Shown: piece by piece, positions 3,122 to 60,648 of the stretch | How positions within the stretch are numbered: position 1 is the first letter of the stretch | Layout of the letters: each line of letters starts with the position of its first letter | Source of the DNA: a bacterium | GTDB taxonomy: Bacteria; UBA8248 | Direction of reading: 5' to 3' | DNA: 64,000 nucleotides | Assembly (NCBI GenBank): GCA_965221165.1 | Contig: CBDCRP010000003.1 | Coordinates: 32,001 to 96,000 of the forward strand | Notes under the pieces: model-generated | The model's database searches: none | Seen by the model: the letters and a program-made list of their open reading frames with translations, nothing else | What the model was told of the DNA's origin: nothing | Position numbers and translations under genes: made by a program

Positions 3122-3310
3122 GTCATTTCTCCTCTGGATGAGGCCGCATCCTAGCCCAGGTTGAAAAAATTGTCTCGCTAGGTTGGAGCGCTTCTCAGGC
3201 CGTGAATAAGATGGTAGTTTGGGAGTTCTATGAGACGATAATACCGCTCGAGAAAGGGGGGATCGGTGTCAAGACCACGTATTCAGCAAGAAGACGAAGG
3301 ATGAGGTGAC

Positions 3311-5920: not shown

Positions 5921-5935
5921 GGTGTTCTCCTCCGT

Positions 5936-6683
5936 CTAATCCGTCCAGAAACCGCCGTTCACGTCCACGGCTTCTCCGTTGATGTGGGCGGCCTCCTCGC
6001 TCGTTAGGAACAAGACGGTGTGCCACACGTCCTCGGGCGTCGTGAGCCTGCCCATCGGATGGGCGTTCGCGGCGTTCACCAGCATCTCGGGCGGAGACTG
6101 GAAGTGAAGGCCCGTATCGGCCGGGCCCGGCTGTATGGTGTTGATCGTTACGCCCGTCTTGGCGAGTTCGCGCGCCAGGTTGAACGTCATGGCGAGCAGG
6201 CCCGCCTTGGCGGCGGCGTAGGTGAGATTCGGGCCGATGCCCCCCATTTTACCCGCGATGGAGGCGAAACTGATGATGCGCCCCGTGCCAGAGGCCTTGA
6301 GCGCCTCGATGGTCTCCTGGATACAAAAATAAGGCGCCAGCAGGTTCACGCCGAGCACCACCTCCCAGTCCTCTTCTTCGAGTTCGAGGGGAGGGCGAAT
6401 CGGCATGTAGCCGGCCACGTTGGCCAGCACGTCGCAGCCGCCCAGCCACTCGAGAGCCGTGCGCATGGTGGTGCGAATGGCGTCCACGTCGGCCAGATCG
6501 CAGGGGAGCTTGAAGAGTTGATCGGATGGGCCGTCGATGGCGTCGAAGGCCTCGCCTTCCCTGTCGGTGGCGAAAACCTTGGCGCCGGCCTCCAGGTATC
6601 CTTGCAGGATGCGGCTTCCCATGGCGCCCGCAGCACCCGTGAGGATGACCTTTCGGCCCTGGAAAGTCAAAATGAATGGACAT
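5936..6683 (-). CDS. Short-chain dehydrogenase/reductase; true start probably ATG 6683 with a one-base frameshift near 6664
   Basis: TGAAGAMG, YAAAK, VNGG; GGAG SD precedes ATG-TCC-ATT-CAT-TTT-GAC, giving MSIHFDFQGRKVILTG if one base is removed. Confidence 0.85.
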
Positions 6684-11893: not shown

Positions 11894-11962
11894 CTTTGTC
11901 GGCGCTCGGTCAAATGCGCTTTTTAGCGGGATGACGGCGAAAGGCTCCCCAAGCGTCTTGCT

Positions 11963-12634
11963 TCAACTCCCCGTTTCTTGTTTTCTCTTCCTGGCGGCCA
12001 GAAACTCCGCTTCCAATTCTAATATCCCATCGGCGATGTTTTGAGCGAATTCCCTGCGGTATTCCCGGCCCTTTCCTTGCGCCGGTTGGATGACCTCGCC
12101 CACCCGGATGACGAGCCAGGAGTCGAGGATTCCCCTCGGGCGGATAAGCGTATTCGACCCCGCGATATAGACCGGAAGAACGGGGGCGCGGCTCATGGCG
12201 GCGAGGGTGGCGACGCCTTCTTTCACTTCCACCTCGGCCGTCGAATCCACGATGCCGCCCTCGGGAAAAATCACCACCGCGCCGTTGAGGCTCAGGAGCC
12301 TGAGCGCCGTCCGGAAGGTGCTGGCGCGCACGGTCCCATCCCTGTCCACGGGAAAGGCGCCGAAATTGGTGATCAGCCTCGCGAAAACTGGATTGCGGAA
12401 CAACTCCCGCTTGGCCATGTGATACACCCGCCTCGGCAGGAAGGAGGCGAGAATAACGGGGTCGAGATAGCTGCGATGGTTCGAGGCGACGATCAGCGGG
12501 CCATCGGGCGGCACGTTGTTCATGCCGTGGACCTCGACTCCGCCGAAGGCGAGCCGAAAGCCCGCCTGGAAAATCTTTTTGAGCCAGGTCGGCTGGCCGC
12601 TCGAAGGCAGCGTGGATAGACGTTGCGTGTTCAT
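11963..12634 (-). CDS. plsC: 1-acyl-sn-glycerol-3-phosphate acyltransferase (PlsC family)
   Basis: NHRSYLD (HX4D), AKRELF, FPEG. Confidence 0.85.
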   Translation of the reverse strand: MNTQRLSTLPSSGQPTWLKKIFQAGFRLAFGGVEVHGMNNVPPDGPLIVASNHRSYLDPVILASFLPRRVYHMAKRELFRNPVFARLITNFGAFPVDRDGTVRASTFRTALRLLSLNGAVVIFPEGGIVDSTAEVEVKEGVATLAAMSRAPVLPVYIAGSNTLIRPRGILDSWLVIRVGEVIQPAQGKGREYRREFAQNIADGILELEAEFLAARKRKQETGS

Positions 12635-12773
12635 TTTTGTGGTTCCGGCATTCTGTTTCCCGGCGCTCTCTTCTCCAAAAAACGATCCTCGCGAGCATGA
12701 ATATCCAGGCTTCCAGCTAGTTCATCATATGAAAATCTTCGCACTCTCCGCAAAGCATTCGGGAAGCGCGTCA

Positions 12774-17452: not shown

Positions 17453-17539
17453 GAAAGCGTCTCCTCATCCTTTGTTCTGTAATTTTAAAGAAGGCGATAA
17501 GCCGGATGGCTTCTTTACATCCCTCGAATCGCCGCTTCT

Positions 17540-18301
17540 TCACAAGTAATACGTTTTTCCCTCTTCGAGCAACTGGATTCTCGGCTCGTTCAATGCCTTG
17601 ATTTCCGCCTTGGTCTCATTGTGATACTGGGTCTTGATGTGAAAGATGTAGACGGGAATATCGGGCGGCATTTTTTGCATCTCCGCTTGGAGCATGGCCG
17701 GCGTCATGTGTTTGGACATGCGCGCGAGTTCCTCCATTTTGTTCGGAAACGACACCTCCGTAATGATGGCGCGCAGGTTCTCCGTCCCGGAAGCGCCCCG
17801 CCAGATGGCCTCAGTTGGGCCCGTGTCGCTGGTGTAGAGCAGCGCGCATTCTGTGTCCTGGATGATGTAGCCGAAGGTGGTGCCTTTGTGGTCGACTTTG
17901 TAGGGGGTCATCCGAACCCCGTTGCAGGAGCGGGTTTCCATCTCCTCGATGGCGGAGAAATCGAGTATCGGTGTGCCTTCGTGGCATATCGCGCAAAAAT
18001 CCGGCCAGACGGCGTTGTTGAAGATGGACTTTTGAATCTGCTCGAGCACGTCTCGCGCGCCGATGATTTTCAGCGAATCATCCCGCAGGCCGAAGATGTT
18101 GTCGGCAAGGTAGGGCAGTTCCGCAATATGATCCAGATGCGCGTGGGACACCAAGACGCCGGTGAGCTTGGCCTGCTCCTCGATGGTGAGGCCGGAAGCG
18201 GCCGATCCGCCCTCCAGCAGCAACTCTTCGTTAATGAGAAAAGACGTCAACTGACACCCGGGCGCTTTGCCGCCCGCGCAGCCCAACACACGGAATTGGA
18301 T
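17540..18301 (-). CDS. MBL-fold 3',5'-cyclic nucleotide phosphodiesterase (class II-like); probable ATC start at 18301
   Basis: SHAHLDH, YTSDTGPT, EVSFPN, HMTP; N-terminus (I)QFRVLGCAGG; GGAGG 7 nt upstream of ATC. Confidence 0.85.
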   Translation of the reverse strand: MQFRVLGCAGGKAPGCQLTSFLINEELLLEGGSAASGLTIEEQAKLTGVLVSHAHLDHIAELPYLADNIFGLRDDSLKIIGARDVLEQIQKSIFNNAVWPDFCAICHEGTPILDFSAIEEMETRSCNGVRMTPYKVDHKGTTFGYIIQDTECALLYTSDTGPTEAIWRGASGTENLRAIITEVSFPNKMEELARMSKHMTPAMLQAEMQKMPPDIPVYIFHIKTQYHNETKAEIKALNEPRIQLLEEGKTYYL

Positions 18302-18398
18302 GGCCTATCCTCCGCCTGAAGCCCCGTGAATGCAAAGAATCTTTCGCTTGCCGCCTGATTATAGGCACAGCCGAATCGTCTTGGGAAGATGTCTTTTT

Positions 18399-20052: not shown

Positions 20053-20301
20053 GGTCTGCTGCCCCTCCTGAGGTGGAGTATGCGGGCGGGTTCAATTGGA
20101 TGGAGTATAGTGGGAATGGGTGCCTCAAGCCAACTTGGCGAGTAGAAAATCTGAGCCCGGGCGCCGGTGGCGCACCGGATTATTGCAAAATGCCCGAAAT
20201 GGTGGTCTAAATGGCTTTGTTCGCCCGTTTCCGTGGACGGAGATGGGAAAGGCTGTTTTCACAATCGCAAGGCGCGGCCTTGCGCTGAGAGGGAAACTCC
20301 A

Positions 20302-21069
20302 GTGGTCGCCATCCTGATCGGCTGCTATCTCGTTGCGGCGCTCACGCACCTGTATCTGCTCTTCACGGGCAGGTCCGCAGGCGTCGTCTACGGGGTCGGC
20401 GCGCTGCTCGTGGGATTTGCGCTTCATACCCTCATGCTGGGGGTGAGCTTCGCCTCCGGCACGCCCGAGGGCTGGGGGCCGTGGCTGAGCGGCATGGCGT
20501 GGGTGATCATCCTGATGTACCTGATCGTCTATGCGCGCTACCGCGATATCGCCCTCGGTGGTTTCGCCGTGCCTACGGCGTTCATTCTCGAGGGATACGC
20601 ATCGGCCTTTCCCGGCGTGTGGGGTGCGGGTTCGAGCGCCGTACAGGGTTATTTGCTGAAAGGCCACGCCGTGCTCGCGCTGCTGAGCTCAGGCGCGTTT
20701 TTTCTGCTCTTCGCCTCTGCGCTGATGTATCTCGTGCAATCCCAACAACTCAAATCAAGACGTCCCAGCGCCTGGCTGCACCGTCTGCCCTCGCTCGATA
20801 TTCTGGACGACCTGAACCACAAGATTCTCTATTTCGGCTTCGCGTTCCTGACGGCGAGCCTGCTGCTCGGCTCGATGTGGGCGAAATCGCGCCACGGCGC
20901 CTACTGGAGCCTCGACCCGGTGCGCACCTGGCCGCTGATACTCATCTGGGGCGCGTACGGTCTCCTGCTCTTCTGCCGGCTCACCAGAAGCTGGAAGGGA
21001 AAGCGCTCCGCCGTTTTCTCGATGGTGGCCTTCTTCGCCGCGCTCCTCGCGCTGGTCGTCCATTTCTAG
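20302..21069 (+). CDS. CcsA/HemX-like cytochrome c assembly family membrane protein (start uncertain, 20167-20302)
   Basis: Multiple TM helices, LPSLDILDDLN, WWD-like domain GSMWAK...YWSLDP; first gene of the hem operon. Confidence 0.8.
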   Translation: MVAILIGCYLVAALTHLYLLFTGRSAGVVYGVGALLVGFALHTLMLGVSFASGTPEGWGPWLSGMAWVIILMYLIVYARYRDIALGGFAVPTAFILEGYASAFPGVWGAGSSAVQGYLLKGHAVLALLSSGAFFLLFASALMYLVQSQQLKSRRPSAWLHRLPSLDILDDLNHKILYFGFAFLTASLLLGSMWAKSRHGAYWSLDPVRTWPLILIWGAYGLLLFCRLTRSWKGKRSAVFSMVAFFAALLALVVHF

Positions 21070-21083
21070 GGGCGCGGAAGAAT

Positions 21084-22394
21084 ATGTCCATCATTCTCGC
21101 CGGCGTGAGCCACCACAACACGCCGCTCAGCATTCGAGAGCGCCTCTATTTCCCCGAAGGAAACATGAGCGAATGGCTCGACAGGCTGGCCGGCTACAAC
21201 GGGCTCGATGAGCGGCTCATCCTCTCGACGTGCAACCGGGTGGAAGTCTACAGCGCAGTGGATGATCTGGAACAGGGACTCGATGCGATTCATCGCTTTT
21301 TCCTGGAATCACGCGACGTCGGCCGAGAAGAGTTGAACGCCCATCTCTACGTTCACCGCGAGGCCGAAGCCACCCGGCATCTGTTCACCGTGGCGTCGAG
21401 CCTCGATTCCATGGTGGTGGGTGAGCCGCAGATTCTGGGCCAGGTGAAAGAAGCCTACCGGGTCGCCCATGCCTCGGGCCACGCCGGAAAGGCGCTCACG
21501 AACCTCTTCTCCCGCGCGTTTCGGGTGGCGAAAAAGATTCGCGAGCAGACGCCGATAGGCGAGTCGCCGGTGTCGGTGAGTTCCGTCGCCGTGGATTTGG
21601 CCAAAAGAATTTTTGGTTCGCTTGCGGGCAAGAACGTGCTCTTGCTGGGCGCGGGCGAGATGGGCGAGGCGGCGGCGAGGCATCTCAAGGCGAGCGGGGC
21701 CGACACCCTCCAGGTAGCGAACAGGACGCTCGCGCGCGCCCAGGAGTTGGCCGCAAAACTCGGGGGACTTGCGTTAAGTTTCGATAATCTGGAAGGAGCC
21801 CTCATCGACGCCGACGTCGTCATCGCATCTACGGCCTCGCCGGGTTTCATTCTGGATAAGCCGACCGTGGCCGCTGCGCTGGAGCGCCGCCGCGACGCGC
21901 CGGTATTCCTCATCGACATCGCCGTGCCGAGAAACGTCGCGCCCGACGTGAACGAACTGGAAAACGCCTATCTCTACGACGTGGACGATCTGCAATCCGT
22001 CGCGGCGGACAACCTGCGGGACCGCGAGGAGGTGGCCCGCGACGCGCGCGCGATCCTCGAATGCGAGGTGCAGACCTATCTCGCCCGCCAGAAGGCGGAG
22101 GAACTCAGGCGCACCTTCGCGGCCATACGCTTCTTTGCGGAGTCGATGCGCCGGACGGAAGTCGAAAAAACCATTCCCCGCCTGCCTGAAATAGGTAAGG
22201 GAGGCCGTGATGCGCTCGACGCCATGACGAAGGCGCTGGTCAACAAGCTTCTCCACCATCCCTTCGCCGTCCTGCGCCGGATGGCGGAAGAAGACGTGGA
22301 GGACATTTCCATTGAATCCGTCCAGAAACTCTTCGGCGTGGAGCCAGAAGGCGATGAGAACCCGCCCGGCCCGCCGCCGGATGAATCGGTCTGA
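21084..22394 (+). CDS. hemA: Glutamyl-tRNA reductase
   Basis: STCNRVE, SMVVGEPQILGQVK, GAGEM, DIAVPRN; real start MSIILAG at 21084. Confidence 0.95.
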   Translation: MSIILAGVSHHNTPLSIRERLYFPEGNMSEWLDRLAGYNGLDERLILSTCNRVEVYSAVDDLEQGLDAIHRFFLESRDVGREELNAHLYVHREAEATRHLFTVASSLDSMVVGEPQILGQVKEAYRVAHASGHAGKALTNLFSRAFRVAKKIREQTPIGESPVSVSSVAVDLAKRIFGSLAGKNVLLLGAGEMGEAAARHLKASGADTLQVANRTLARAQELAAKLGGLALSFDNLEGALIDADVVIASTASPGFILDKPTVAAALERRRDAPVFLIDIAVPRNVAPDVNELENAYLYDVDDLQSVAADNLRDREEVARDARAILECEVQTYLARQKAEELRRTFAAIRFFAESMRRTEVEKTIPRLPEIGKGGRDALDAMTKALVNKLLHHPFAVLRRMAEEDVEDISIESVQKLFGVEPEGDENPPGPPPDESV

Positions 22395-29116: not shown

Positions 29117-29472
29117 CCGTCCCCCGGAGACTCGATTCATTGCCGGCCCACGCGGTTTTAGGTGCCGGCTCCTCCGAATCCCTCTCATCTCGAATCGCTA
29201 TCCATGCCGTTTCGTTCGTTTCATAGCGCCTGAAGCTATCCTGAAAGACGCATTCCGTGCCATAATCATTACTCCATATACTGCCTGTTAGGAAATCCTT
29301 TGGCGGAATTCTTCATCCACATTCTGAGTCGTTGCAAACCCCCTTTATCGCTCTCAACTTCGTTTTTTGAAATCCGGTGCCGTCTAAGGCGGATTATCGA
29401 CAGTACCGTGCGTATCCGGGGTCTCATGATGGAAGCATGGGGGAAATGAGTTTTTCATAAAAGGTCGACGTT

Positions 29473-30360
29473 TTGCTTGATGGCATTCATCCCAACATTT
29501 TAGCGCTCAGCTGCGCCACGCTCATCGCCTTCGCCCGTGTTTCGCAGCGCTATGCGATTCCGCGCATGAAAATGCACACGGCCAATCTGATTATGGCATG
29601 TGTGACGACCACTCTCGGTTGGTTTTTCTACTGGATGGAGGGTCCGCTCGATCAGATCCCCTACCAGGGTATTTTCTGGTTCATGGCCATGGGATTTTTC
29701 GGGAGTTTTTTAGGTAGATACATCAATTTCATCGCCATCCGCTATGCCGGTCTCGCGCGTGCGGCGGTGATGAACCAGACCGTTCTGGTGTGGTCGTCGG
29801 TTCTGGCCGTTTTTATACTGGGCGAACACATGTCGCTTCAGAAGGCGGGCGGAATTCTGGGCGTCATGTGCGGGGCGAGCCTGCTCGTCTACAACCCCAA
29901 GGGAGACATTGGACGCAGGATACCGCTTCATTATTATGCGATCCCCATCGCGTCCGCGCTGATGTACGCATTCGCGCATCTGGTGGGGAAGTTCGCGTTC
30001 GAGTGGATTTCCTCCTCCGCTTTCGGGATGGCGATAGCCAACTCGACATCGCTCACGCTCTTGCTGGGAATGTTGCCCTTCGCGCAAGGGCAAACAAACC
30101 CGGGCGCAGGCGGCGATAACAAAGGCCTTCTGGTCCTTCTCCTGGGCGCCGCACTGCAGGGGTGCGGTATTTTCTTCTTCTGGTCCTCGTTGAAACTCGG
30201 CGAGATCACCCGCGTGATTCCCTTAACCCGCCTGTCCGTCTTGTTGATCATCTTTCTGTCCTGGCTGTTGTTCCGGCAGCAGGAAAACGTGACATGGCGC
30301 GTCGTCCTGGGCGCGTTGATTGCTCTTGCGGGCGCTTTCTTTACCGTAACGGGAAGATAA
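29473..30360 (+). CDS. EamA/DMT family transporter
   Basis: About 10 TM helices in two repeats, ILGEH and FRQQE loops. Confidence 0.8.
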   Translation: MLDGIHPNILALSCATLIAFARVSQRYAIPRMKMHTANLIMACVTTTLGWFFYWMEGPLDQIPYQGIFWFMAMGFFGSFLGRYINFIAIRYAGLARAAVMNQTVLVWSSVLAVFILGEHMSLQKAGGILGVMCGASLLVYNPKGDIGRRIPLHYYAIPIASALMYAFAHLVGKFAFEWISSSAFGMAIANSTSLTLLLGMLPFAQGQTNPGAGGDNKGLLVLLLGAALQGCGIFFFWSSLKLGEITRVIPLTRLSVLLIIFLSWLLFRQQENVTWRVVLGALIALAGAFFTVTGR

Positions 30361-30363
30361 GCG

Positions 30364-31242
30364 TTGGTCGATTCCATCCATCCCAATATCCTGGCTCTCA
30401 TCGCCGCTTGTTTTATCGCCTCCGCCCGCACTCTTTACCGCGCCGGCGTGGCGCGCCTGAGCCTGGTTGTGATGAACGTCATCATGGCTCCCGTGCAAGT
30501 GTGTTTCGGCACTGTTTTTTACTTCCTGGAAGGCGGTGTGGCGGATTGGCCGCTCGGAGGCCTGCTCAGGTTCGCCGCCATGGGTGTTTCCGGCTCGCTT
30601 ATCGGCCGTTATTTGAGCCTCGTGGGCATGAAGCTGGTGGGATTGGCGCGTTCCTCGATCGTCACTCAAACGAGTCTCGTGTGGGCGTCGTTGTTTGCGG
30701 TGGTTTTCGCAGGGGAGCAGATGACGTGGATCATCGCGGTCGGGACGCTGGCCATCATGATGGGCTCGATTCTTCTTGTTTATGAAAAAGGCGATATCCA
30801 AAAGCGCATCCCGCTTACTGCTATATCTTCCCTTTGGGGACCGCTGTTTTGTTTGCGATGACGCACCTGTTCGGCAAGTTTGGGCTGCAGCTCATCAAAT
30901 CCGCCTCCTTCGGTATGACGGTCGGCAGCATGATGGCGTTTTGTTTCATGATGATTGTCCTGCCTTTCTCCGTCGAGGGAAGAGCACCCAAATCCTGGGA
31001 TAAAAAGGGAGTCGTGGCCGTTTTAGGCGGCGCATGTCTGAACGCCATAGCGGCCTTTTTCTTCTGGTCATCCATCAAAACGGGGACATCGTTCAACTCA
31101 TTCCTCTCAACCGCTTCTCGGTGTTGCTCATCATTTTCCTGTCCTGGGTGTTTTCAGAAAACAAGAGGCGGTGGGCTGGCGTGTCGTCATCGGCGGTTTC
31201 TTGTTCGTCCTGGGAGCCGTTGGGGTTGTTTTGGGCAAATAG
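30364..31242 (+). pseudogene. Tandem EamA/DMT paralog with three one-base frameshifts (pseudogene or assembly errors)
   Basis: Collinear with the upstream paralog (DSIHPNILAL ... IPLNRFSVLLIIFLSW ... WRVVIGG ... LGK*); shifts at short homopolymers near 30815, 31083 and 31152. Confidence 0.75.
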
Positions 31243-31365
31243 ATTTAAGGAAAAGGTCGCCCGCCCGGGCGGAGCAATTCAATTTTGCTCGTCTCGCGTC
31301 CCAAATGCTGATAAAGTGAGAGCACAAAACAGGTTTCGGGTATTCATATGTATGAGAGGAACACT

Positions 31366-37140: not shown

Positions 37141-38406
37141 TTATATGCGCGCGATCTTGTTCGTCATGTCGATCAGACTGTCGAGGTTGTGGGCCGCCAG
37201 GAATTCATCGCAATAGGGCAGGGCCGTTCGCATACCTCTGTCGATCGGGCGGTAGCCGGGGCTGCCCAGCAAAGGATTGAGCCAGAAGAGTTTGTAGCAG
37301 ATTTTCTTGAGGCGATTCATTTCCTCCGCCAGCGTATCCGTATCGCCCCGATCCCAGCCGTCCGATATGATGATGACGATGGTGCGGCTGTTCAGGACGG
37401 TCCTGCCGTATTCATAGTTGAATGTTTTGAGACAGTTGCCGATCTGCGTGCCGCCGCTCCAGTCGTGCACTTCCATAGATAGGCGCTTGAGAGCGGTGTT
37501 TACGTCCTTGTGGCGCAGATACGGCGTTGCGTCCGAAAGACGCGTGCTGAATACGAAGGTGCGCAGCGATTTAATCTCGTTTTGCAGGCTGTAGAGAAAC
37601 TGAATCAGAAATTGACTGTAGCTGTCCATCGACCCCGATACGTCGCAGATCAGCACGATCTGGGTTTTTTGTATCTTTCTTCTCCGGCGGAAGAGTTTCA
37701 GCACCTCCCCACCCGAGCGAACGCTTCTCGTTACGCTTCGCCTCATGTCGATTTCGGGAGAGCGCATGTCGGGCCGTTTGCGGCGGCTGATTTTGGTGGC
37801 GAGCTTTGGCACGAGTTTCGCAATGAGGCGCCTGAGTTCGGCGACCTGGTCCATGTTCAGTGCGGAAAAATCCTTGTCCGATATGACTTCGGCGGGACTG
37901 TAAGAGGGCACTCCCTCGTCGTCATCTCCCTGCTCACCGGGTTCGGCGGCGCTTTCGACGTCATCTTCCGATGGAAGCCCTGGATTTTCCTGCCCTTCGC
38001 CCTCGGCGTCCGATTCTCCTTCCTCCGAAGTTCCGCCCCCCTCGCCGGCTTGTCCTTCGCCTTCTTCTTCGAATTGAGTGTCGACCTGCACCGATTCGTC
38101 GCCCGAGTAAGGATTTCCTTTCTCGTCGAACCAGTATTGCCGGAACACGGCGTCGAATATCATGCTCTCATCCTGGCTTGAGATGAGATTCGACTTGCTG
38201 GCGATATAGATGTTGTCGAGATTCGTGGCCTCGAGCGAGTCGAAACTGCGGAACACGTCGATGATGCGGCCGGAGGTTATCTTGAGACCCGCGCGCCTGA
38301 GGATACGGCAAAAGCCGATCATCTCACCTTTCAGGCCTCGGCCCCTTACCCGGACTCGGCGCTTGGGAAGAGTCCCTTGCACGATGGGACGGATGGTGGT
38401 TGCCAT
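37141..38406 (-). CDS. CoxE-like VWA domain protein
   Basis: DVSGSMDSYS MIDAS, FVFSTRL, DWSGGT.IG, ISDGWDRG, WLNPL. Confidence 0.9.
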   Translation of the reverse strand: MATTIRPIVQGTLPKRRVRVRGRGLKGEMIGFCRILRRAGLKITSGRIIDVFRSFDSLEATNLDNIYIASKSNLISSQDESMIFDAVFRQYWFDEKGNPYSGDESVQVDTQFEEEGEGQAGEGGGTSEEGESDAEGEGQENPGLPSEDDVESAAEPGEQGDDDEGVPSYSPAEVISDKDFSALNMDQVAELRRLIAKLVPKLATKISRRKRPDMRSPEIDMRRSVTRSVRSGGEVLKLFRRRRKIQKTQIVLICDVSGSMDSYSQFLIQFLYSLQNEIKSLRTFVFSTRLSDATPYLRHKDVNTALKRLSMEVHDWSGGTQIGNCLKTFNYEYGRTVLNSRTIVIIISDGWDRGDTDTLAEEMNRLKKICYKLFWLNPLLGSPGYRPIDRGMRTALPYCDEFLAAHNLDSLIDMTNKIARI

Positions 38407-38419
38407 GAAAATGCCCGGA

Positions 38420-39370
38420 TCAGGCGTCGGGCGCCAGTTGCGCCGTCGCTACCATGCTGTCGAGACCGTCATTCTCCACACGTTTGATGTCGTCCTGGTA
38501 CTTGAGTATGCAGCCGATGGTTTCTCGCACGGCGTCTGCGTCGAGTTCATTGCGGTGCAGCGCCAGGAGCGCCTGCGCCCAGTCGAGGGATTCCGCCACG
38601 CCGGGGCGTTTGTAGAAGTCCATCTGCCTCGCCTGCGTCATAAAGCGGGAGATTTGTTCGGCCAGCCGATCGGTGATCCCGGGCACCTTCGTCGTGATGA
38701 TCTCCACTTCTTTCTCGAAGGAGGGATAATCGACCCACAGATAAAGGCAACGACGCTTGAGGGCGTCGTGAATCTCGCGCGTCCGGTTGCTGGTGAGCAC
38801 CACGAAGGGTTTGCTGGCCGCCTTGACGGTCCCCATCTCCGGAATCGTGATCTGGTAGTCGGAGAGAATTTCCAGCAAAAACGCTTCGAATTCTTCGTCC
38901 GAGCGGTCGATTTCGTCGATGAGCAGGACCACCGGCTTCTCTTTCGAGTGCAACAGCGCGCGAAGAAGGGGCCGTTCTATCAGGTACTCTTGGCTGAAGA
39001 TGTCTTTTTCAATCTTCTTCGCGTCCGAATCCCTGCCTTCTTCCATCTTGATGTGGAGGAGTTGTTTCGCATAGTTCCACTCGTAGAGAGCCGAACTCGC
39101 GTCGAGGCCCTCGTAGCATTGCAAGCGGATGAGTTCGGTATCCATCGCGCTGGCGAGCACTTTTGCAAGTTCCGTCTTCCCGACACCGGCTTCGCCTTCC
39201 AGGAAGAGGGGTTTTTCCAGCTTCGTGGCCAGGAAGAGTGTGGTCGCCAGAGTTCTGTCGGAGATGTAGTCTAGTTTTCTGAACGAATCCTGAACATCCT
39301 CGACGTCCGTAAATCCTGATGAGGACCCTTTCTTCCCTTTGGTTGAGTTTGATGAGGCAGTCACGCTCAT
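38420..39370 (-). CDS. CoxD-like MoxR AAA+ ATPase
   Basis: LEGEAGVGKT, RLQCYEGLD, LIDEIDRSDEEFEA, HDALKRRC. Confidence 0.92.
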   Translation of the reverse strand: MSVTASSNSTKGKKGSSSGFTDVEDVQDSFRKLDYISDRTLATTLFLATKLEKPLFLEGEAGVGKTELAKVLASAMDTELIRLQCYEGLDASSALYEWNYAKQLLHIKMEEGRDSDAKKIEKDIFSQEYLIERPLLRALLHSKEKPVVLLIDEIDRSDEEFEAFLLEILSDYQITIPEMGTVKAASKPFVVLTSNRTREIHDALKRRCLYLWVDYPSFEKEVEIITTKVPGITDRLAEQISRFMTQARQMDFYKRPGVAESLDWAQALLALHRNELDADAVRETIGCILKYQDDIKRVENDGLDSMVATAQLAPDA

Positions 39371-39927
39371 TTCCCTTTTCCTTTCTTCGAGGAAAGTTCT
39401 TCAGCCGCCGCCTCGATAGCGTCGATAATCTTCACATAGCCGGTGCAGCGACAAAGATTACCCGCGATGCCGACCTTGATTTCCTGTCGGCTGGGGTTCG
39501 GGGTGTTGTCGAGCAATTCCTTCGCGGCGACTATCATTCCAGGCGTACAGAAACCGCACTGAATGGCGCCGTGCTCGATGAATTTTTGCTGGATCGGGTG
39601 GAGGTTGTCCACCGTTCCGATGCCTTTGACCGTGGTGATTTCACGGCCTTCCGCCTGGACGCCGAGCGCGCAGCACGCGTTCATCGCCAGACCATCCAGA
39701 AGAATCGTGCAGGCGCCGCAATCGCCCGCCTCGCAACCGTTTTTCACTTCGGTGAAACCCAAGTCACGCAGCAGATACAGCAAAGTGGTGTGCGCGGGCG
39801 CGTCAGTGTTGACTTCCTGGTCGTTCACCGTGAAGGAAATGGGCACCTTCTTTGGGGGCACGTATGCGGGTGCGCTCGATTTTTTCTTCGCGGTTCGTTT
39901 TGATTTGCTCGCTGTAGCCATCTTCAA
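39367..39927 (-). CDS. 2Fe-2S small subunit of a Mo-hydroxylase (CoxS/CutS-like)
   Basis: GCEAGDCGACT, QCGFCTPG, GNLCRCTGY. Confidence 0.93.
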   Translation of the reverse strand: MKMATASKSKRTAKKKSSAPAYVPPKKVPISFTVNDQEVNTDAPAHTTLLYLLRDLGFTEVKNGCEAGDCGACTILLDGLAMNACCALGVQAEGREITTVKGIGTVDNLHPIQQKFIEHGAIQCGFCTPGMIVAAKELLDNTPNPSRQEIKVGIAGNLCRCTGYVKIIDAIEAAAEELSSKKGKGK

Positions 39928-43426: not shown

Positions 43427-43487
43427 TTTTGGTGTTTATCGTTGGGGTTCGAGACTATGGCGATGAAACAAAAGGAGAGAGAAGACA

Positions 43488-44144
43488 ATGGATAACGCCC
43501 CTGTACGGTTCACGGTATACAGTGATTTTTTGTGACCCTGGTGCTTTAACTCGGCCGTGCGCCTGAAGAAGATAAAAGAAGAATACGGAGAGAAAGTAGA
43601 TATTCAGTATCGGGTTTTCATGCTGAGGCCCGAGCCGGACCCCACGGCGGTGTTCAACGATTACCGCAGAAACCACTGGACGAACGCGAATTCGCAGCCC
43701 GATTCCGGTGATTTCACCTTATGGGAGAGCGAGGAGGAATTCCCGAACTGCTCGATGCCGTCTGCAGAAGCGGGGCTGGCGGCGAGATTCCAGGGACCCG
43801 AAGAGTGGGAAAAATTTCACGACAATCTTCTGGCCGCTTTCTTCACGGAAAACCGGAACATCTCGGACAAGAAAACCGTGGGCGACGTGGCGGAGGAAAG
43901 CGGCCTGGACATGGACAGGTACCGCGACGCTATTGAAAACGGGAGTTTGAAGGAAAAAGCCGTCAAGGAATACATGGAGGCCACGAATTTGGGGATAACG
44001 GGCATCCCCTCCGTAGTCGTGAACGATCGCGCGGTCATGGTCGGCGCGGTGCCGGCCGAACAATACAGATACGTCATCGACAGCATCCTTGAGACCGGTG
44101 AATTGCCTGGACGCGCACCCGGCGAGTTGCCAATCGCGGACTGA
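43488..44144 (+). CDS. DsbA/FrnE-like thioredoxin-fold oxidoreductase; probable selenoprotein (TGA 43533-43535, UPWC motif)
   Basis: SD AAGGAG, ATG 43488, MDNAPVRFTVYSDFL-U-PWCFNSAVRLKK in frame with ORF 43557..44144; C-terminal cis-Pro GITGIPS and GAVP. Confidence 0.85.
43544..43568 (+). promoter_or_regulatory. Weak SECIS-like hairpin after the UGA
   Basis: CUUUA/UGAAG lower stem, 4-nt bulge, GGC/GCC upper stem, loop CGUGC starting 21 nt after UGA. Confidence 0.4.
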
Positions 44145-44186
44145 AGCAGCCTCTGTGGATGCGCCAGGAAACGAGGAGTCTTTCTT

Positions 44187-45179
44187 CTGAATCCTTCTGA
44201 TCTCAAAGGCTACATAACCGATGTTCCGGGCTTTTATCTCGGCCACGCGCACGATGATGGGGCCAAAACGGGCGTCTCCGTGGTGCTTTGTCCGCCCGGA
44301 ACCGTCGGGGCGTGCGAATTGCGCGGCACGGCGACGGCCACGCGCGGTATGGATGCTTTGCGCGCAGAACACCTTGTCGGAGGCGTGGATGCGATCGTCC
44401 TGACGGGAGGAAGCGCATTCGGCTTGGCCTCTGCAGACGGCGTCATGGCCTTCCTGGAAGAGCAGGGCAGGGGATTTCCCACCGGGCGGTTCAACGTGCC
44501 CACGGTCGCCGCCGGAGTGCTGTTCGACCTGCATTTCGGTGATGGCCGAGTCCGTCCGGACGCCGCCATGGGACGCGCCGCATGCGAGGCGGCCTCGAAC
44601 GCCGAAGGCCCCCAGGGAAGCGTGGGCGCGGGCGCGGGAGCCACGATAGGGAAACTGTTCGGCCAGGAGCGCGCCATGAAGGGCGGCATGGGGACGGCGA
44701 GCGTTGAGCTGCCGGGGGGCGGCGTCGTGGGCGCGGTTGCCGCGGTGAACGCCTTCGGCGGCATCTATGATCCTGAGACGGGAAATCCCCTCGCAGGGCC
44801 GAGGGCGATGCCTCCTGACCAAGGAATCGTGAATACGGAAGAGCACTTGAGGATCCACGGAAGACCCTTCGAGGGATTTTCCAACACTTCCGAGAATACG
44901 ACGCTCGTAGCTGTCGCGACGAATGCCTCCTTGACGAAAACCGAAACCCACAAACTCGCCCAGTTGGCGACGAACGGGCTCATTCGTACGGTCCGTCCTT
45001 CTTTTACGACGGTGGATGGAGACATGGTGTTCGCACTCTCCCGCGGGGAGCGAGAGGTGGCTCTCGACGTCGTCGGGGCTGCCGCCATGACGGCCGTCGG
45101 CCACGCGATATGCCGCGCGGTGATGGAGGCCGACGGCGGAGGCATCCTCCCCGCCTGGCGCGATCTTCCCGCATCGTAA
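44187..45179 (+). CDS. Peptidase family S58 (DmpA/P1 peptidase); probable CTG start at 44187
   Basis: ITDVPGF.LGH...TGVSVV upstream of the GTG at 44280, LTGGSAFGL, VGAGAGA, ENTT, DGDMVFA; SD GAGGAG 8 nt before CTG. Confidence 0.88.
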   Translation: MNPSDLKGYITDVPGFYLGHAHDDGAKTGVSVVLCPPGTVGACELRGTATATRGMDALRAEHLVGGVDAIVLTGGSAFGLASADGVMAFLEEQGRGFPTGRFNVPTVAAGVLFDLHFGDGRVRPDAAMGRAACEAASNAEGPQGSVGAGAGATIGKLFGQERAMKGGMGTASVELPGGGVVGAVAAVNAFGGIYDPETGNPLAGPRAMPPDQGIVNTEEHLRIHGRPFEGFSNTSENTTLVAVATNASLTKTETHKLAQLATNGLIRTVRPSFTTVDGDMVFALSRGEREVALDVVGAAAMTAVGHAICRAVMEADGGGILPAWRDLPAS

Positions 45180-47004: not shown

Positions 47005-47814
47005 ATGTCCCCATCCGATAACGGCACGAATCCAACGCTGCGCCTTCAGGGCGTCGGGAAATGGTTCGGCTCCCTCCATGTGCTCGATGAAATCGACATC
47101 GACGTGAAGACACAGGAAATCCTGACGATTCTTGGTCCCAGCGGGTGCGGGAAGACGACGCTTCTTCGGATCGTGAACGGACTCATTTTCTGCGAGAGGG
47201 GAGAGGTTTCCTTCAAAGGAGAGGTGGTCACCGGTCCGAGGCCGGAGATGGCCATGGTTTTCCAGAACTTTGGGCTTTTCCCCTGGAAGCGCCTCGACCA
47301 GAACATCGGCTACGCGCTCAGGATACAGGGTAAGGAGAAGGGCGAAATCGACAGCCTCGTGAGCCACTACACGGAGCTGGTGGGTCTGGAGGGCTTTGAG
47401 GCGAACTACCCCTCGCAATTATCGGGGGGTATGCAGCAAAGAGCGGGCCTGGCGCGTGCGCTCGCCGCACAGCCCGACGTTTTGCTGATGGATGAGCCTT
47501 TCGGCGCGCTCGATGCGCTGACGCGTGAAACGCTGCAGGAGGAGTTGCTGCGCATCAACGAGGTGGAACCCAAGGCGATGATATTCATCACCCACAGCAT
47601 CGACGAGGCGCTTCTGCTCGGGGATCGCGTTCTGGTGATGACGCCCAGACCGGGGAGAATACGCTTTCAGTTCGAAACCGGCTTCGGCCGCGGCAGAGAC
47701 CTGGAAGAACTCCGGGGCGGCAAGCGCTTTCAGGCGCTGCGCCATTACCTCTGGGAAGCCATGCGCAATCCCGACGAAGAGCCGGAACCCATTCCCGAAC
47801 TTATCGCTGAATAG
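47005..47814 (+). CDS. NitT/TauT-type ABC transporter ATP-binding protein
   Basis: GPSGCGKT, LSGGMQQR, LLMDEPFGALD, ITHSIDEA. Confidence 0.93.
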   Translation: MSPSDNGTNPTLRLQGVGKWFGSLHVLDEIDIDVKTQEILTILGPSGCGKTTLLRIVNGLIFCERGEVSFKGEVVTGPRPEMAMVFQNFGLFPWKRLDQNIGYALRIQGKEKGEIDSLVSHYTELVGLEGFEANYPSQLSGGMQQRAGLARALAAQPDVLLMDEPFGALDALTRETLQEELLRINEVEPKAMIFITHSIDEALLLGDRVLVMTPRPGRIRFQFETGFGRGRDLEELRGGKRFQALRHYLWEAMRNPDEEPEPIPELIAE

Positions 47815-47828
47815 GAGGCATCAGTCCT

Positions 47829-48653
47829 TTGGCTACCGACGCCCCTGCGGCAACAGGCGTATCGACGGCGGAAAAAGCAACCTGGGAGCGCATCAAGGAA
47901 CCCGCCGTATACGTGCGCTTGATATCGCTGGTGGTCGTCATCGGCGGGTGGGAGTTGATGGGGCTGACCGGCAACATCGATCCGGTCACCTTCAGCTACC
48001 CGAGCGCCATATCCGTCGCGTTCTGGGAACTGATTGAAAGCGGGAAGATGACAGCCGCCGCATACGAGAGTTCGCAAATCCTGGTGGCGGGTCTGCTCAT
48101 CGCGATCCCCTTAGGCATCGTGCTGGGGACCCTCATGGGGCGCTTCCAGATTTTCGAGTACGCCGTGGACACTTACGTGTTCGCGCTCTACGCCACGCCC
48201 GTGGTCGCGCTGGCGTTTCCGATAGCCATGGTTCTGGGTGTGGATTTCGTCGGCAAGACGACCATCGTCGTCTTCTTCGCCATCATGCCGATCATCGTGA
48301 ACGTCTATCACGGCGTGCGGAACGTGGACCTCTCGCTCCTCGAGGTGACGCGCTCTTTCTGCTCAACGGAAAGCCAGAGGTGGCGGGATTTGATTTTCCC
48401 GAGCGTGGTTCCTTATCTCGTCGCGGGCCTGGGGCTCGCGTGCGGACGCGCGTTGGTGGGAATGGTCGTCGCGGAGTTCCTGATGAGCATCTCGGGACTC
48501 GGCGCGCTGAGCCAGGACTACATCGGGGATCTGGAACTGGACAAAGGCCTGGCGCCTGTTGTCTTGTTGATGGCAGTCGGTATAGCTTTAACCAAAGTCG
48601 TGAACGTCTGCGAGACGAAGTTTTCATCCTGGAGGGTTCGGCAAGAGTCCTGA
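47829..48653 (+). CDS. NitT/TauT-type ABC transporter permease
   Basis: TM helices, EAA-like loop, VVAEFL; TTG start with SD GGAGG. Confidence 0.9.
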   Translation: MATDAPAATGVSTAEKATWERIKEPAVYVRLISLVVVIGGWELMGLTGNIDPVTFSYPSAISVAFWELIESGKMTAAAYESSQILVAGLLIAIPLGIVLGTLMGRFQIFEYAVDTYVFALYATPVVALAFPIAMVLGVDFVGKTTIVVFFAIMPIIVNVYHGVRNVDLSLLEVTRSFCSTESQRWRDLIFPSVVPYLVAGLGLACGRALVGMVVAEFLMSISGLGALSQDYIGDLELDKGLAPVVLLMAVGIALTKVVNVCETKFSSWRVRQES

Positions 48654-48709
48654 TGGTGGGCAGCTTGCCGAGACATGAATTTTCTATTCTTCTTAAGGAG
48701 TTTGGTGAA

Positions 48710-49723
48710 ATGAAAAAGACATGGATGGTATTGGTCGCGGCGTTCGTTCTCGCCGCAACGACGTGGAGCGCGCCGGCGCAGTCCGCCGCCGCCGACAAGA
48801 TAGTGCTCGGCATGCCCGTGCGGCCGCCGGTCATGGTGCACCTGCCTGTGTTCTACGCGCTGGACAACGATATTTTCAAGAAGCACGGCCTGGACGTCGA
48901 GATTAAATTCTTCCGGGGCGGCGTCGCCACGCACCGGGCGATAACGAGCAAGAAGAGCGGCCTGGACGCCGCCTGGGTGCCGGCCCCGATTGCGATGGTG
49001 GGCATCACCAAGGGCAGCCGCATGAAGTTTTTCCACTCGATGGCCTACCTGAACGAAGCGCAGATGGCCGGGAACGAGCAGGTCAAGAAGCCGTCCGACT
49101 TGAAGGGCCGCACCATCGGCATCGAGGGGCGCGGCGGATACAGCCACCTGGGCGCGCTCGCCGTCTTGTCGACCGCAGGCCTGGCGGATAAGGACGTGAA
49201 ATACATCAAGACCCCGCCTCCGGCGCGCGTTCCCTTCCTGCTCAAAGGGAAAGCCGACGCCGTGGTCATCCACGTCGAGCAGGTTCTCGTCGTCAAGAAG
49301 AGAAAACCCAGCTTCAACAAGCTGATGGACCTCTGGAAAGCCATGCCGAACTTCTTCTACGGGGCGTTCATCGCGCCGTCTTCGAAGATCAACGCGAACA
49401 AGGACGCCTACGTGCGCTTCGCCATGGCGATGATGCAGTCCAACCGATCCATCTACAAGGACAAGGCGGGCTATCTTAAATCGGCGAACAAATGGGTGCG
49501 TCCCGTCTATAAGAAAAACCCCGAAATCATGTCGAAAACTTATGACATCTTCGTGGCGGAGAAAATCTGGGGCGTGAACAACGGCATCCCCAAGGCCTCG
49601 GTTTCCTTCACGGCGGACTACATGAAGCGCCTCGGCAAAATCAAGGGCAAGGCTCCCTCTTATGAGGACATCGTCGACACGAGCGTGACGAAGGCCGCGC
49701 TCGCCAAGGCAGGCAAGATTTAG
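48710..49723 (+). CDS. NMT1/THI5-like ABC substrate-binding protein
   Basis: Signal peptide MKKTWMVL..., FKKHGLDVEI, DLKGRTIG; SD AAGGAG. Confidence 0.88.
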   Translation: MKKTWMVLVAAFVLAATTWSAPAQSAAADKIVLGMPVRPPVMVHLPVFYALDNDIFKKHGLDVEIKFFRGGVATHRAITSKKSGLDAAWVPAPIAMVGITKGSRMKFFHSMAYLNEAQMAGNEQVKKPSDLKGRTIGIEGRGGYSHLGALAVLSTAGLADKDVKYIKTPPPARVPFLLKGKADAVVIHVEQVLVVKKRKPSFNKLMDLWKAMPNFFYGAFIAPSSKINANKDAYVRFAMAMMQSNRSIYKDKAGYLKSANKWVRPVYKKNPEIMSKTYDIFVAEKIWGVNNGIPKASVSFTADYMKRLGKIKGKAPSYEDIVDTSVTKAALAKAGKI

Positions 49724-49942: not shown

Positions 49943-50693
49943 GTGCCCGTAACCGTTCATGGCGTGAAGCCCCGGGCGTGGGAGGAGCAGGTGAAATCCT
50001 TCGTCAGAAAGCGCTACGCGCATCTGGCGGAGGCGCGATGCGTTCCCCGAAGGCGGTGCGGACAGAGCGCGAGGAGCAGGCTATCCCGCCCGCTTTATCG
50101 ACGGACTTCCCGAACGCGTTTCGTCCTCTTATTGCGGCTGCGGGTACCTGCTCGAGGGAGTCGACCTCGCGGGCGTGCAAACGGCCGTCGAGTTGGGATG
50201 CGGCGCGGGATTAGACGCGCGTCTTCTGAGCGAGAAGCTGGAGGCGGGCGCCAGGCTGTTCGCGGTGGATTTGGCGCCCCAGATGCTTCATCGTACGCGC
50301 GAGGCGTTTGTGGGTCTCCATCAAGACGCGCGCGTGCATCTGCTGTCCGGGGACATGGAGAACATCCCCATTATGGACGGCGTCGCCGACGTTGTGCTCG
50401 CTAACGCCTCGCTCAACCTGACGGTGAACAAGAAAAAGGCGCTCGCCGAGGCGCGCCGCATATTGAAGCCGGGTGGCCGCCTCGTGGCCCGCGAATTGAT
50501 ACGTGAAGGCGAATTGCCCGGTGAGATCGCCCAGGACCCCCAGGCGTGGAACGCCTCGCTCGGCGGGGTCTGCGAACAGACCGAATGGGAGTCCCTGCTG
50601 GCGAGCGCCTGTTTTTGTGATATTGATGTTTCCGGCCACGCTCCGTTTCGTCCGGTGGTTTCGGTTCGGATCCATGCCCGAAAGGCCGCTTGA
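49943..50693 (+). CDS. ArsM-like SAM-dependent methyltransferase, frameshift near 50035
   Basis: VKSFVRKRYA then (other frame) GYPARFIDGLP...SYCGCG...VELGCGAGLD, GDMENIP, RILKPGGR. Confidence 0.75.
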
Positions 50694-58803: not shown

Positions 58804-60440
58804 CTAGATTTTCGGGCCGGCCGCCGCGACGTCCGGCGTCACCCGATCCGCGAACTGCTCGAAATTCTCCCGGAACGCTCCGGCGAGCTCGCGTATTTTC
58901 TCGTCGTATTTTTCAGAACTCGTCCAGAGCTTTCTGGGGACCATGAATTCATCGGATACATCGGGACAACTTATGGGAACATGGAGATCGAATATCGGCA
59001 CGTTCTGGGTGGGAACATTGGCGAGCTCGCCCGTTAAGGCGGCCGTCAAGAGCGCGCGCGTATGATGCAGGGGCATTCTGTCGACCTCGCCGGCCGCTCC
59101 GCCGATCCAGCCTGTGTTGACGAGCCAGACTTGTGCGTCGTGCTTCTTGAGCCTGTCCCTGAGCATCTCGCCGTATTCGGCGGGGTGTAAGGCCAGGAAG
59201 GGTGCTCCGAAACAACTGCTGAACGTGGCCATCGGCTCATCGACGCCCGCCTCGGTGCCCGCCACTTTCGCCGTATAGCCGGAGAGGAAATGGTAGGCGG
59301 CCTGTTCGGGCGTGAGTTTGCTGATGGGGGGCAGGACGCCGAATGCGTCGCAAGTAAGGAAGAATACGTTTTTCGGGTGCCCGCCCATGCCTGAGAGTAC
59401 GCAATTGTCGATGAAATGCGTAGGGTAGGTGGCGCGCGTGTTTTCCGTTATCGACATGTCGTCATAGTCGATCTCCCGCGTTTCGTGGTCGACGATGACG
59501 TTTTCGAGAACGGACCCAAAGCGGATCGCATCCCAAATCTGGGGCTCTTCCGCTCTCGTGAGATTGATGGTTTTTGCGTAGCAGCCCCGCCTTCGAAATT
59601 GAAGATGCCCGAATCCGACCACCCGTGCTCATCGTCGCCGATGAGTTTTCGGTTCTGATCGGCGGAGAGCGTGGTCTTGCCCGTGCCGGAAAGTCCAAAG
59701 AAAAGGGCCGTATCCCCATCGTGGCCCATATTCGCCGAACAATGCATCGGAAAGACGCCTTTTTGCGGAAGCAGGTAGTTCATGATGAAAAAGGCGGATT
59801 TCTTCATCTCTCCGGCGTATTCCGAGCCGCCGATGAGCGCCATGTTTTTCTCAAAATTCACGAGCGTGAAATTATTTTGCCGGAGTCCTTCCGCCGGCCC
59901 TGCTCCCAGGAACTTACCCATATCGATCACCGTGAAGGGGGTTTCGTGATTTTCCAGTTCACCGGGTTTGGGGCGCACAAGGAGGGTCTGGCAGAACATC
60001 GAGTGCCACGCCTGTTCGGAAATAACGCGCACGGGGAGCTTGTAACGCGGGTCGTTTCCCACAAATCCGTCGAAGATAAAAAGGTCGCGCTTTTGGGCGT
60101 AACTGGCGATTTTCTGGAAAATGTTGTCCCAGTTTTCGGTCGATATTTTCTGGTTGATGGGTCCCCACCATATCTTCTCGTTGGAAGGCCCCTGGTCTAC
60201 CGTGAATTTATCCTTTGGGGAGCGACCCGAGAATTTGCCGGTATGGACCACGAGCGCGCCATTGGTGGCGAGGTATCCTTCGCCGCGCGCAACCGCCATT
60301 TCATTCAATTCTGCGATGGGAAGATTCCGGTAAACGGTTCCAATATTTTTGAGACCCAGTTTGTCTAGACCAAACGTTTTTTCCGTTCCTATGCTCGCAC
60401 GTGAGGGGGTTCCCTTTCCTCCCTCCTTGGCTTGTGCCAT
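58804..60440 (-). CDS. pckA: Phosphoenolpyruvate carboxykinase (ATP), frameshift at the G-run near 59586
   Basis: GRSPKDK, YAGEMKKS, FFGLSGTGKTTLS, IGDDEHGW, FNFEGG|CYAK, ENTRATYP, FLSGYTAK, LVNTGW. Confidence 0.93.
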
Positions 60441-60648
60441 GTGTTGCTTCCTCCCGGGAGTCGAATTTCAGTGCAACAGTTTCGCTCGTCTGCGGAGCAT
60501 TTTCCTGAATTGTCTTGCGAATTGCGTACGAATCCGCCCAAAGAATGTCGCAATATGCCTCGCAGAGTGGAAGAAGTCAAAAGCAAATCGGGGCAGTTTG
60601 CACCTCTCCGCCGCGCAAATTCTTTCAGGTTTTATCGATTACCCACGT

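Follow-up and report, generated by a model that had tools for sequence, protein, structure and literature searches.

The stretch of DNA considered here, hereafter the window, comprises 64,000 nucleotides (nt) from a bacterium of the lineage UBA8248 (positions 32,001 to 96,000 of contig CBDCRP010000003.1, assembly GCA_965221165.1). On its forward strand lies a gene for an FrnE/DsbA-like oxidoreductase whose redox motif contains an in-frame TGA codon and which very probably encodes a selenoprotein. The features of this gene, all on the + strand, are as follows.

43474..43477, +, Shine-Dalgarno sequence GGAG, separated from the ATG by 10 nt
43488..44144, +, complete reading frame for the probable FrnE/DsbA-like selenoprotein, 218 codons followed by a TGA stop
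43488-43490, +, ATG start codon
43533..43535, +, in-frame TGA at codon 16, proposed to be read as selenocysteine (Sec, U16), first residue of the U-P-W-C redox motif
43542..43544, +, TGC for Cys19, the resolving cysteine that closes the UPWC motif; hardly any aligned sequence differs here
43544..43571, +, candidate bacterial selenocysteine insertion sequence (SECIS) hairpin, nt 12-39 when the U of the UGA is nt 1
43556-43560, +, apical loop CGUGC of that hairpin, nt 24-28, 20-21 nt after the UGA
43749..43751, +, TGC for Cys88, the only other cysteine, next to an invariant Ser89
44007..44009, +, CCC for Pro174 of a G-I-P loop, at the cis-proline position of the thioredoxin fold
44142..44144, +, TGA serving as the true stop of the gene

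Translation of 43488-44144 through the internal TGA gives a protein of 218 residues that begins MDNAPVRFTVYSDFL-U-PWCFN, the site itself standing in the context YSDFL-U-PWCFN. A AGGAGAGAG-type stretch precedes the ATG in most of the related loci too, and the stop position is likewise common to the relatives, which use TGA, TAG or TAA there. The open reading frame (ORF) returned by a standard gene caller starts at GTG 43557 in the same frame and yields 195 residues with a single cysteine, C88 of the full protein, and no CxxC motif at all. This GTG corresponds to G25-U26-G27 in the loop of the candidate SECIS hairpin, and because gene callers start inside that loop the annotated protein of 195 amino acids is left without an active site. 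No Shine-Dalgarno-like sequence was found upstream of GTG 43557, whereas the ATG at 43488 has its GGAG.

The complete reading frame matches the Pfam family DSBA (PF01323) with E = 1e-22, residues 10-197 aligning across the TGA to positions 4-190 of the 191 in the model. Since the match spans residues 10-197, the domain needs the segment upstream of the TGA. The closest sequence match among structures in the PDB is FrnE from Deinococcus radiodurans (5cnw, E = 2.1e-12, residues 4-190 against 10-208), and in that alignment the TGA stands opposite Cys22, the first cysteine of the FrnE motif SDIACPWC. An AlphaFold2 model built on 24 sequences has a mean pLDDT (predicted local distance difference test) of 89.9 and predicts a thioredoxin fold with an inserted helical domain. 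Its elements run in the order strand-helix-strand, helices over residues 58-167, strands over 175-185 and a last helix, with helix 1 beginning at residue 17, right after U16. When the model was compared with the PDB using Foldseek, the best matches were the FrnE entries 5cp1, 5xwh, 5co3, 5cnw and 5coh, together with 3kzq and 2in3; a probability of 1.00 was returned for FrnE, 3kzq, 2in3, SCO1869, YjbH, the kappa-class glutathione S-transferase and the cytosolic reductase DsbM (5hfi). By sequence match and predicted fold, then, the gene product belongs to the FrnE branch of the DsbA family. Pro174, which lies in the G-I-P loop before strand 3 and is invariant in 24/24 aligned sequences, would by its place in the fold be the cis-proline. 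The other cysteine, C88, falls in a P-x-C-S motif in 18/18 rows of the main Sec clade, while the more distant sequences L032, L033 and P0046-P0048 carry H or E at that position. No cysteine follows C88; the C-terminal 130 residues are free of it, hence there is no CxxxxC tail. The initial annotation of this DNA, made from the letters alone, had described a strong Shine-Dalgarno sequence and ATG at 43488 with a TGA in frame with a 195-residue ORF devoid of CxxC, and had placed that TGA on the first, attacking cysteine of a CPWC motif; both descriptions agree with the frame and alignments given above.

Related loci were collected by a scan of genome contigs, which returned 33 of them (L001-L033) from metagenome-assembled genomes (MAGs) labelled Nitrospinota, Nitrospinaceae, Tectomicrobia, "bacterium", Deltaproteobacteria or Binatia. 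Alignment of these homologs at codon 16, which had been proposed as the check on the initial reading, gives TGA in 32 of the 33 loci and TGT in the other (L032), the TGA-bearing loci reaching down to 37% protein identity. Every locus also has an in-frame start codon 13-20 codons before the TGA or TGT, with the frame open in between. The residues V-R-F-T-V-Y-S-D-F-L that lead into the TGA are kept in 25-33 of the 33 rows while their codons differ: synonymous pair diversity is 0.425 over the 13 codons upstream of the TGA against 0.377 in the gene body, and individual values for codons -10 to -1 lie between 0.24 and 0.68. The residues downstream of the TGA are conserved likewise. Residues kept under synonymous variation are the mark of translated sequence, which excludes a sequencing error or a recent pseudogene. 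The TGA stands opposite a cysteine in the full-length distant homologs P0046-P0048, in L032, in 22 CxxC representatives of the wider family and, as Cys22, in FrnE.

The nucleotides that follow the TGA behave differently from those before it. They are nearly invariant to about +39, with ordinary synonymous variation from there on. Synonymous diversity over codons +1 to +12 is 0.185, the minimum among all 12-codon stretches of the gene, and over codons +6 to +12 it falls to 0.096, the minimum among 206 seven-codon stretches; for the residues encoded there (S, A, V, R, L, K) the averages in other parts of the gene are 0.33-0.59. Folded alone by local minimum free energy, nt 10-42 form a single hairpin with G25-U26 in the apical loop in 18/18 distinct sequences, the loops reading CGUGC, GCCGUG, GUUC, AGGUC or GUGC. 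Within the main clade the hairpin energies lie between -3.6 and -7.4 kcal/mol, while the divergent loci L030, L031 and L033 reach -10.1 to -14.5 kcal/mol; the hairpin does not form in the Cys-type locus L032 (one sequence). One pair, 19-34, shows compensatory change (UA 18, GC 2, UG 1). A named structure of 10 pairs is satisfied in 86.2% of cells, compared with 42-61% when the partners are slid, a comparison that favours itself as the structure was derived from the same sequences. The weak hairpin with loop CGUGC, placed 21 nt after the UGA in the initial annotation, is thus present at 43556-43560, and it is indeed weak.

TGA is an ordinary stop codon in this window. The stops of 43 Pfam-supported ORFs are divided between TGA (17), TAG (16) and TAA (10), and the FrnE/DsbA-like gene itself ends in TGA, so that TGA is not reassigned here. 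To look for further recoded codons, 176 TGA-bridged segments, mostly outside Pfam-assigned genes, were translated and scanned against Pfam; a domain spans the TGA in two of the 176, the FrnE/DsbA-like gene and a second gene on the opposite strand:

5092-5938, -, two-domain rhodanese/sulfurtransferase gene, with a TGA at 5217-5215 on the active-site Cys

In this rhodanese the codon stands in the context A-Y-U-Q-T-G-Y-R, opposite the active-site-loop Cys of the Thermus rhodanese 1uar (E = 3.8e-35), and a hairpin of -15.6 kcal/mol begins 13 nt downstream. The N-terminal ~75 codons of the gene, which begin at an ATG near 5921, are read in a different frame, with a frame break near 5700-5720. A rhodanese-related sulfurtransferase is among the selenoprotein forms tabulated in the portion of a 2026 review that lists them, where it appears as UxxG (PMC13188914). 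This gene is probably the "first" selenoprotein that the initial annotation had counted before the present one. Seven other segments with Pfam hits were set aside as Sec candidates, since their translations and domain coordinates, as read, place the TGA outside the domain: a short-chain dehydrogenase/reductase segment at 2375-3355, an acyltransferase segment at 11894-12721, a metallo-beta-lactamase segment at 17468-18304, an EamA segment at 30361-30915, an AAA segment at 38327-39457, a BPD_transp segment at 47529-48710 and a methyltransferase segment at 49968-50690.

Taken from the sequence evidence, 43488-44144 is in all probability a genuine selenoprotein gene of the FrnE/DsbA type in which Sec replaces the attacking cysteine (U16-P-W-C19). 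The data show the frame and the fold, the alignment of Sec with Cys, the conservation of the TGA and of the sequence on either side of it, and a constraint at the nucleotide level together with a hairpin that is conserved. The wider claims of the initial annotation fared well on the same evidence. It had argued that two TGAs landing on catalytic Cys codons within 64 kb are unlikely to be random error and point to a selenoprotein-rich organism; the second TGA is found in the rhodanese, the first recurs at the same codon across the related loci, and the excerpt of the BSepDB paper that concerns MAG FO_M_Nitrospinota_01, which holds the syntenic homolog L025, lists it with 54 selenoprotein genes (PMC13326102), which fits a selenoprotein-rich lineage.

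Several results weigh against this assignment. The hairpin of the window is weak (-3.6 to -5.0 kcal/mol locally) and shows no excess stability over shuffled sequence (z = 0.09 and 0.31). The RNAalifold consensus is a core of no more than 4 pairs (covariation term -0.12). Three pairs show changes in both partners, a result that 92 of 500 shuffles also reach; the covariation support is thin because the hairpin region hardly varies. A scan of the whole window against Rfam at the gathering score gave no match to a SECIS family. None of the NCBIfam selenoprotein models reached its cut-off; the best, the Rcas_1661 family of thioredoxin-like selenolipoproteins, gave 47 bits where 190 are required. 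This match covers the C-terminal half only, and the gene was not assigned there. Nor does the 64-kb window contain selA, selB, selD or tRNA-Sec: ARAGORN and Rfam found tRNA-Gly as its only tRNA, and the Pfam families returned for 60 window ORFs include none of the Sec pathway. The candidate hairpin is therefore graded as a likely SECIS only, because a conserved hairpin and a strong constraint are set against stability at the level of shuffled sequence and the lack of an Rfam match.

The alternative that survives best accepts that the UGA is translated and holds that it is decoded by some other means: Cys or Trp could be inserted through near-cognate or suppressor read-through, or the lineage could have a recoding of its own that does not use SelB. 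It can draw on the lack of Sec machinery in the window and on the minimal nature of the SECIS candidate. We nevertheless regard it as highly unlikely, given that TGA is an ordinary stop in 17 of the 43 ORFs, that the site is a redox cysteine of the kind at which the published family shows Sec/Cys pairs (in the part of the 2005 study that describes them; PMC1088965), that a second TGA with a strong hairpin falls on the catalytic Cys of the rhodanese, and that the MAG of L025 is catalogued as selenoprotein-rich, as far as the BSepDB entry cited above goes (PMC13326102).

A smaller chance still attaches to the possibility that the TGA is a true stop, with the gene beginning at GTG 43557 and encoding a DsbA-like protein of 195 residues that has no active site, the upstream frame of 15 codons being a leader or a product of chance. 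Public protein records appear to favour this view. A search of a clustered protein collection gave 48 hits, and all 44 with at least 50% identity have a length of 152-197 amino acids and cover at most 89% of the query; 14 of these 44 were aligned, and all begin at or after query residue 22, typically with MRLKK. The only full-length hits are the distant P0046-P0048 (33-34% identity), which read YSDFLCPWCFN. The weakness of the hairpin would also be more easily accommodated. The short records are, however, the output of gene callers and not evidence of initiation. The upstream DNA encodes the conserved V-R-F-T-V-Y-S-D-F-L with synonymous variation and matches both the Cys-type homologs and FrnE residue for residue; a start at 43557 would remove strand 1 from the predicted fold, along with the N-terminal turns of helix 1; and the ribosome-binding sequence lies at ATG 43488, with nothing like it at GTG 43557. 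The last alternative, that the TGA stems from an error in sequencing or assembly or that a TGT or TGC has recently mutated in a gene turning into a pseudogene, has a negligible probability. In its favour, the assembly seems to hold several frame breaks and so is not error-free: PEP (phosphoenolpyruvate) carboxykinase is split, and the rhodanese N terminus lies in another frame. These apparent errors are indels and not substitutions, however, and the same TGA is found in 32 independent assemblies down to 37% identity, which refutes the idea in practice.

If the gene does encode a selenoprotein, its expression and catalysis can be outlined as follows. The UGA at 43533 would be recoded co-translationally, with the hairpin of nt 12-39, presenting G-U in its loop, recruiting SelB that carries Sec-tRNA(Sec), as in other bacterial selenoprotein mRNAs. 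In the finished enzyme the selenolate of U16 would attack and C19 would resolve the mixed intermediate, so that the protein would alternate between a selenolate/thiol form and a U16-C19 selenenylsulfide. By analogy with FrnE, disulfides of cytoplasmic clients may be reduced or isomerised in this way. We infer Sec insertion and its dependence on SelB, as we do the direction of catalysis and the reductant. The location would be cytoplasmic, because the N-terminus, MDNAPVR, leads directly into strand 1 at residue 6 without a hydrophobic stretch.

A more ambitious proposal is that selenium has reshaped the FrnE-type enzyme of this lineage in two connected respects: Cys88 would join U16 and C19 in the redox chemistry and resolve their selenenylsulfide in place of the CxxxxC tail, and the SECIS would have shrunk to the near-invariant nt 12-39, recognised by SelB more by sequence than by helix stability. 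We consider this combination unlikely and offer it tentatively.

The evolutionary setting of the gene was examined with a maximum-likelihood tree of 36 rows, consisting of the 24 rows of alignment A3 and the first 12 full-length CPWC representatives, from which truncated and multi-domain hits were excluded. Eighteen Sec rows form one clade with support 98/97. The Sec-bearing L033, from Binatia, is nested in a Cys clade with support 100/98, so that the tree requires at least two Sec/Cys changes. A wider search of 1.84 billion representatives returned 7616 hits at E ≤0.001, of which 38 had E ≤1e-30. The best 150 of the 7616 hits include 46 single-domain proteins and break down as follows.

104 of the best 150 (within P0051-P0198), long chains (384-1196 residues) in which 4-10 stretches match, as DsbA-like domains in tandem
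22 of the best 150, single-domain with CxxC
2 of the best 150, single-domain with CPWR or CPWS
13 of the best 150, single-domain starting "(M/V)RL" right after the missing motif
9 of the best 150, other single-domain fragments

The proteins with the "(M/V)RL" start (P0036, P0055, P0096, P0115, P0121, P0134, P0142, P0148, P0150, P0159, P0173, P0182 and P0196) each represent a separate cluster at 50% identity and show the same truncation as the public homologs of the window protein. They are candidates for hidden Sec forms, which by their sequences may be common in the wider family. Since 13 of the 46 single-domain representatives among these best hits start after the missing motif, FrnE-like Sec forms may be under-counted well beyond the present clade.

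Around the gene, the order is CoxM-like flavoprotein, MiaB-like radical SAM (S-adenosylmethionine) protein, SAM-hydroxide adenosyltransferase (SAM_HAT), the FrnE/DsbA-like gene, S58 peptidase, MFS transporter, RidA and ABC ATPase. Of the 30 loci L001-L030, 28 preserve this block to either side of the gene, with L025 showing the order of the window; L020 differs upstream, L030 runs off its contig, and the order is absent from L031-L033. No functional link between the FrnE/DsbA-like gene and its neighbours was seen, and no operon is claimed. One MAG, SCS3bin.47, carries two syntenic blocks (MiaB-like, SAM_HAT, DsbA-Sec, S58), L021 and L026, with 73% and 61% identity to the window protein; this could stem from duplication of the block or from related genomes binned together as one. 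The S58 (DmpA-type) peptidase that follows (44145-45179, +) is in frame with the TGA stop of the FrnE/DsbA-like gene, and no ATG, GTG or TTG precedes GTG 44280 in its frame. Its conserved sequence I-T-D-V-P-G-F begins near 44220, upstream of that GTG. A CTG stands at 44187, with GAGGAG 7 nt before it; among 10 aligned relatives 8 conserve this CTG, and L025 has an ATG one codon later. From these sequences the peptidase likely starts at the CTG, in which case gene callers would truncate this gene as well.

Elsewhere in the window other reading frames appear to be interrupted. The ATP-dependent PEP carboxykinase (58807-60467, -) is represented by two overlapping ORFs that cover positions 2-265 and 253-464 of the 465 in the Pfam model, an apparent frameshift that reflects either an assembly error or a pseudogene. 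An ORF for a luciferase-like monooxygenase (3305-4349, +) covers positions 1-208 of 314 in its model and is followed by an overlapping ORF of 135 codons in another frame, which may be another frame break. An EamA transporter that is complete (29461-30357) is followed by another gene of EamA type (30361-31316, +), whose first domain lies at 30361-30858 (Pfam E = 1.1e-11) and whose second half, judged membrane-rich by eye, lies at 30786-31316 in another frame with no Pfam hit; this too looks like a frame break. The stop-to-stop ORF of hemA (glutamyl-tRNA reductase; 20289-22391, +) carries ~270 residues before GlutR_N, the domain starting at residue 272, and these could be a separate in-frame upstream gene or an N-terminal extension.

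The practical value of these observations is a correction of annotation, as the lineage records this gene as a DsbA fragment of 194-197 residues without its active site. Correctly read, it would encode a selenoenzyme that is conserved, in sequence and in gene order, within a group of uncultured bacteria rich in selenoproteins. It adds a well-supported selenoprotein, a SECIS alignment for the lineage and an example of one family in which Sec and Cys were exchanged at least twice. It opens no new question on selenium biology: the selenoprotein family is already described and the gene is an ordinary member.

Selenoproteins of the DsbA-like type have been described more than once. The 2005 study of the Sargasso Sea metagenome, in the part that names new selenoprotein families, includes a "DsbA-like protein" (COG2761, UxxC, 9 sequences) and gives Sec/Cys pairs at the redox cysteine as the rule for its DsbA-like family (PMC1088965). 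A DsbA-like selenoprotein family was later reported from several complete genomes, among them Anaeromyxobacter, Desulfovibrio and Desulfotomaculum, in an excerpt of a further paper (PMC1794560), and the 2026 review has an entry for "DsbA-like protein form 1, PF01323, UxxC" in its section on such families (PMC13188914). Because a UxxC DsbA-like selenoprotein family has been in print since 2005, to go by that part of the study (PMC1088965), the novelty of the present gene is low, and it may already be catalogued in BSepDB. A literature search on Nitrospin* and selenoprotein found only the BSepDB paper (PMC13326102), and one on FrnE and selenocysteine, judged by titles and the opening of abstracts, found no title on bacterial FrnE selenoproteins among the five listed of six papers that contain both terms. 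The gene shares with the COG2761 selenoproteins the PF01323 domain, a UxxC motif that begins with Sec and a predicted hairpin just 3' of the UGA. In contrast to that family, with which it was compared by description only, the clade of the window gene forms a deep lineage with shared synteny, whose MAGs bear the labels Nitrospinota, Tectomicrobia or "bacterium", with a nearly invariant sequence after the TGA and a clade-specific Cys88.

Among proteins of known structure, P. aeruginosa DsbM (5hfi, 5hfg) and the cytoplasmic DsbA-fold proteins 2in3, 3kzq and YjbH (6ghb) have the same fold (query TM-score 0.67-0.79, probability 1.00), but these are Cys or non-redox forms with 18-20% identity, their functions being taken from the PDB titles. 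The most instructive comparison is with FrnE of D. radiodurans (DR_0659; 5cnw, 5co3, 5cp1), which has a CP(W/F)C motif at the same place and the same fold, with Cys instead of Sec and an identity of only about 20%. According to the passages of the FrnE paper that deal with it, FrnE is a predicted cytoplasmic protein of the DsbA family with disulfide isomerase and reductase activity in vitro, and a frnE mutant is more sensitive to cadmium and diamide (PMC8945050). D. radiodurans FrnE possesses the C-terminal CxxxxC tail, proposed in the same passages to regenerate the active site (PMC8945050), whereas the window protein lacks it, like the forms from S. roseofulvus and D. maricopensis. Since some FrnE proteins do without the tail, again as far as that source describes them (PMC8945050), it is not strictly a defining feature of FrnE.

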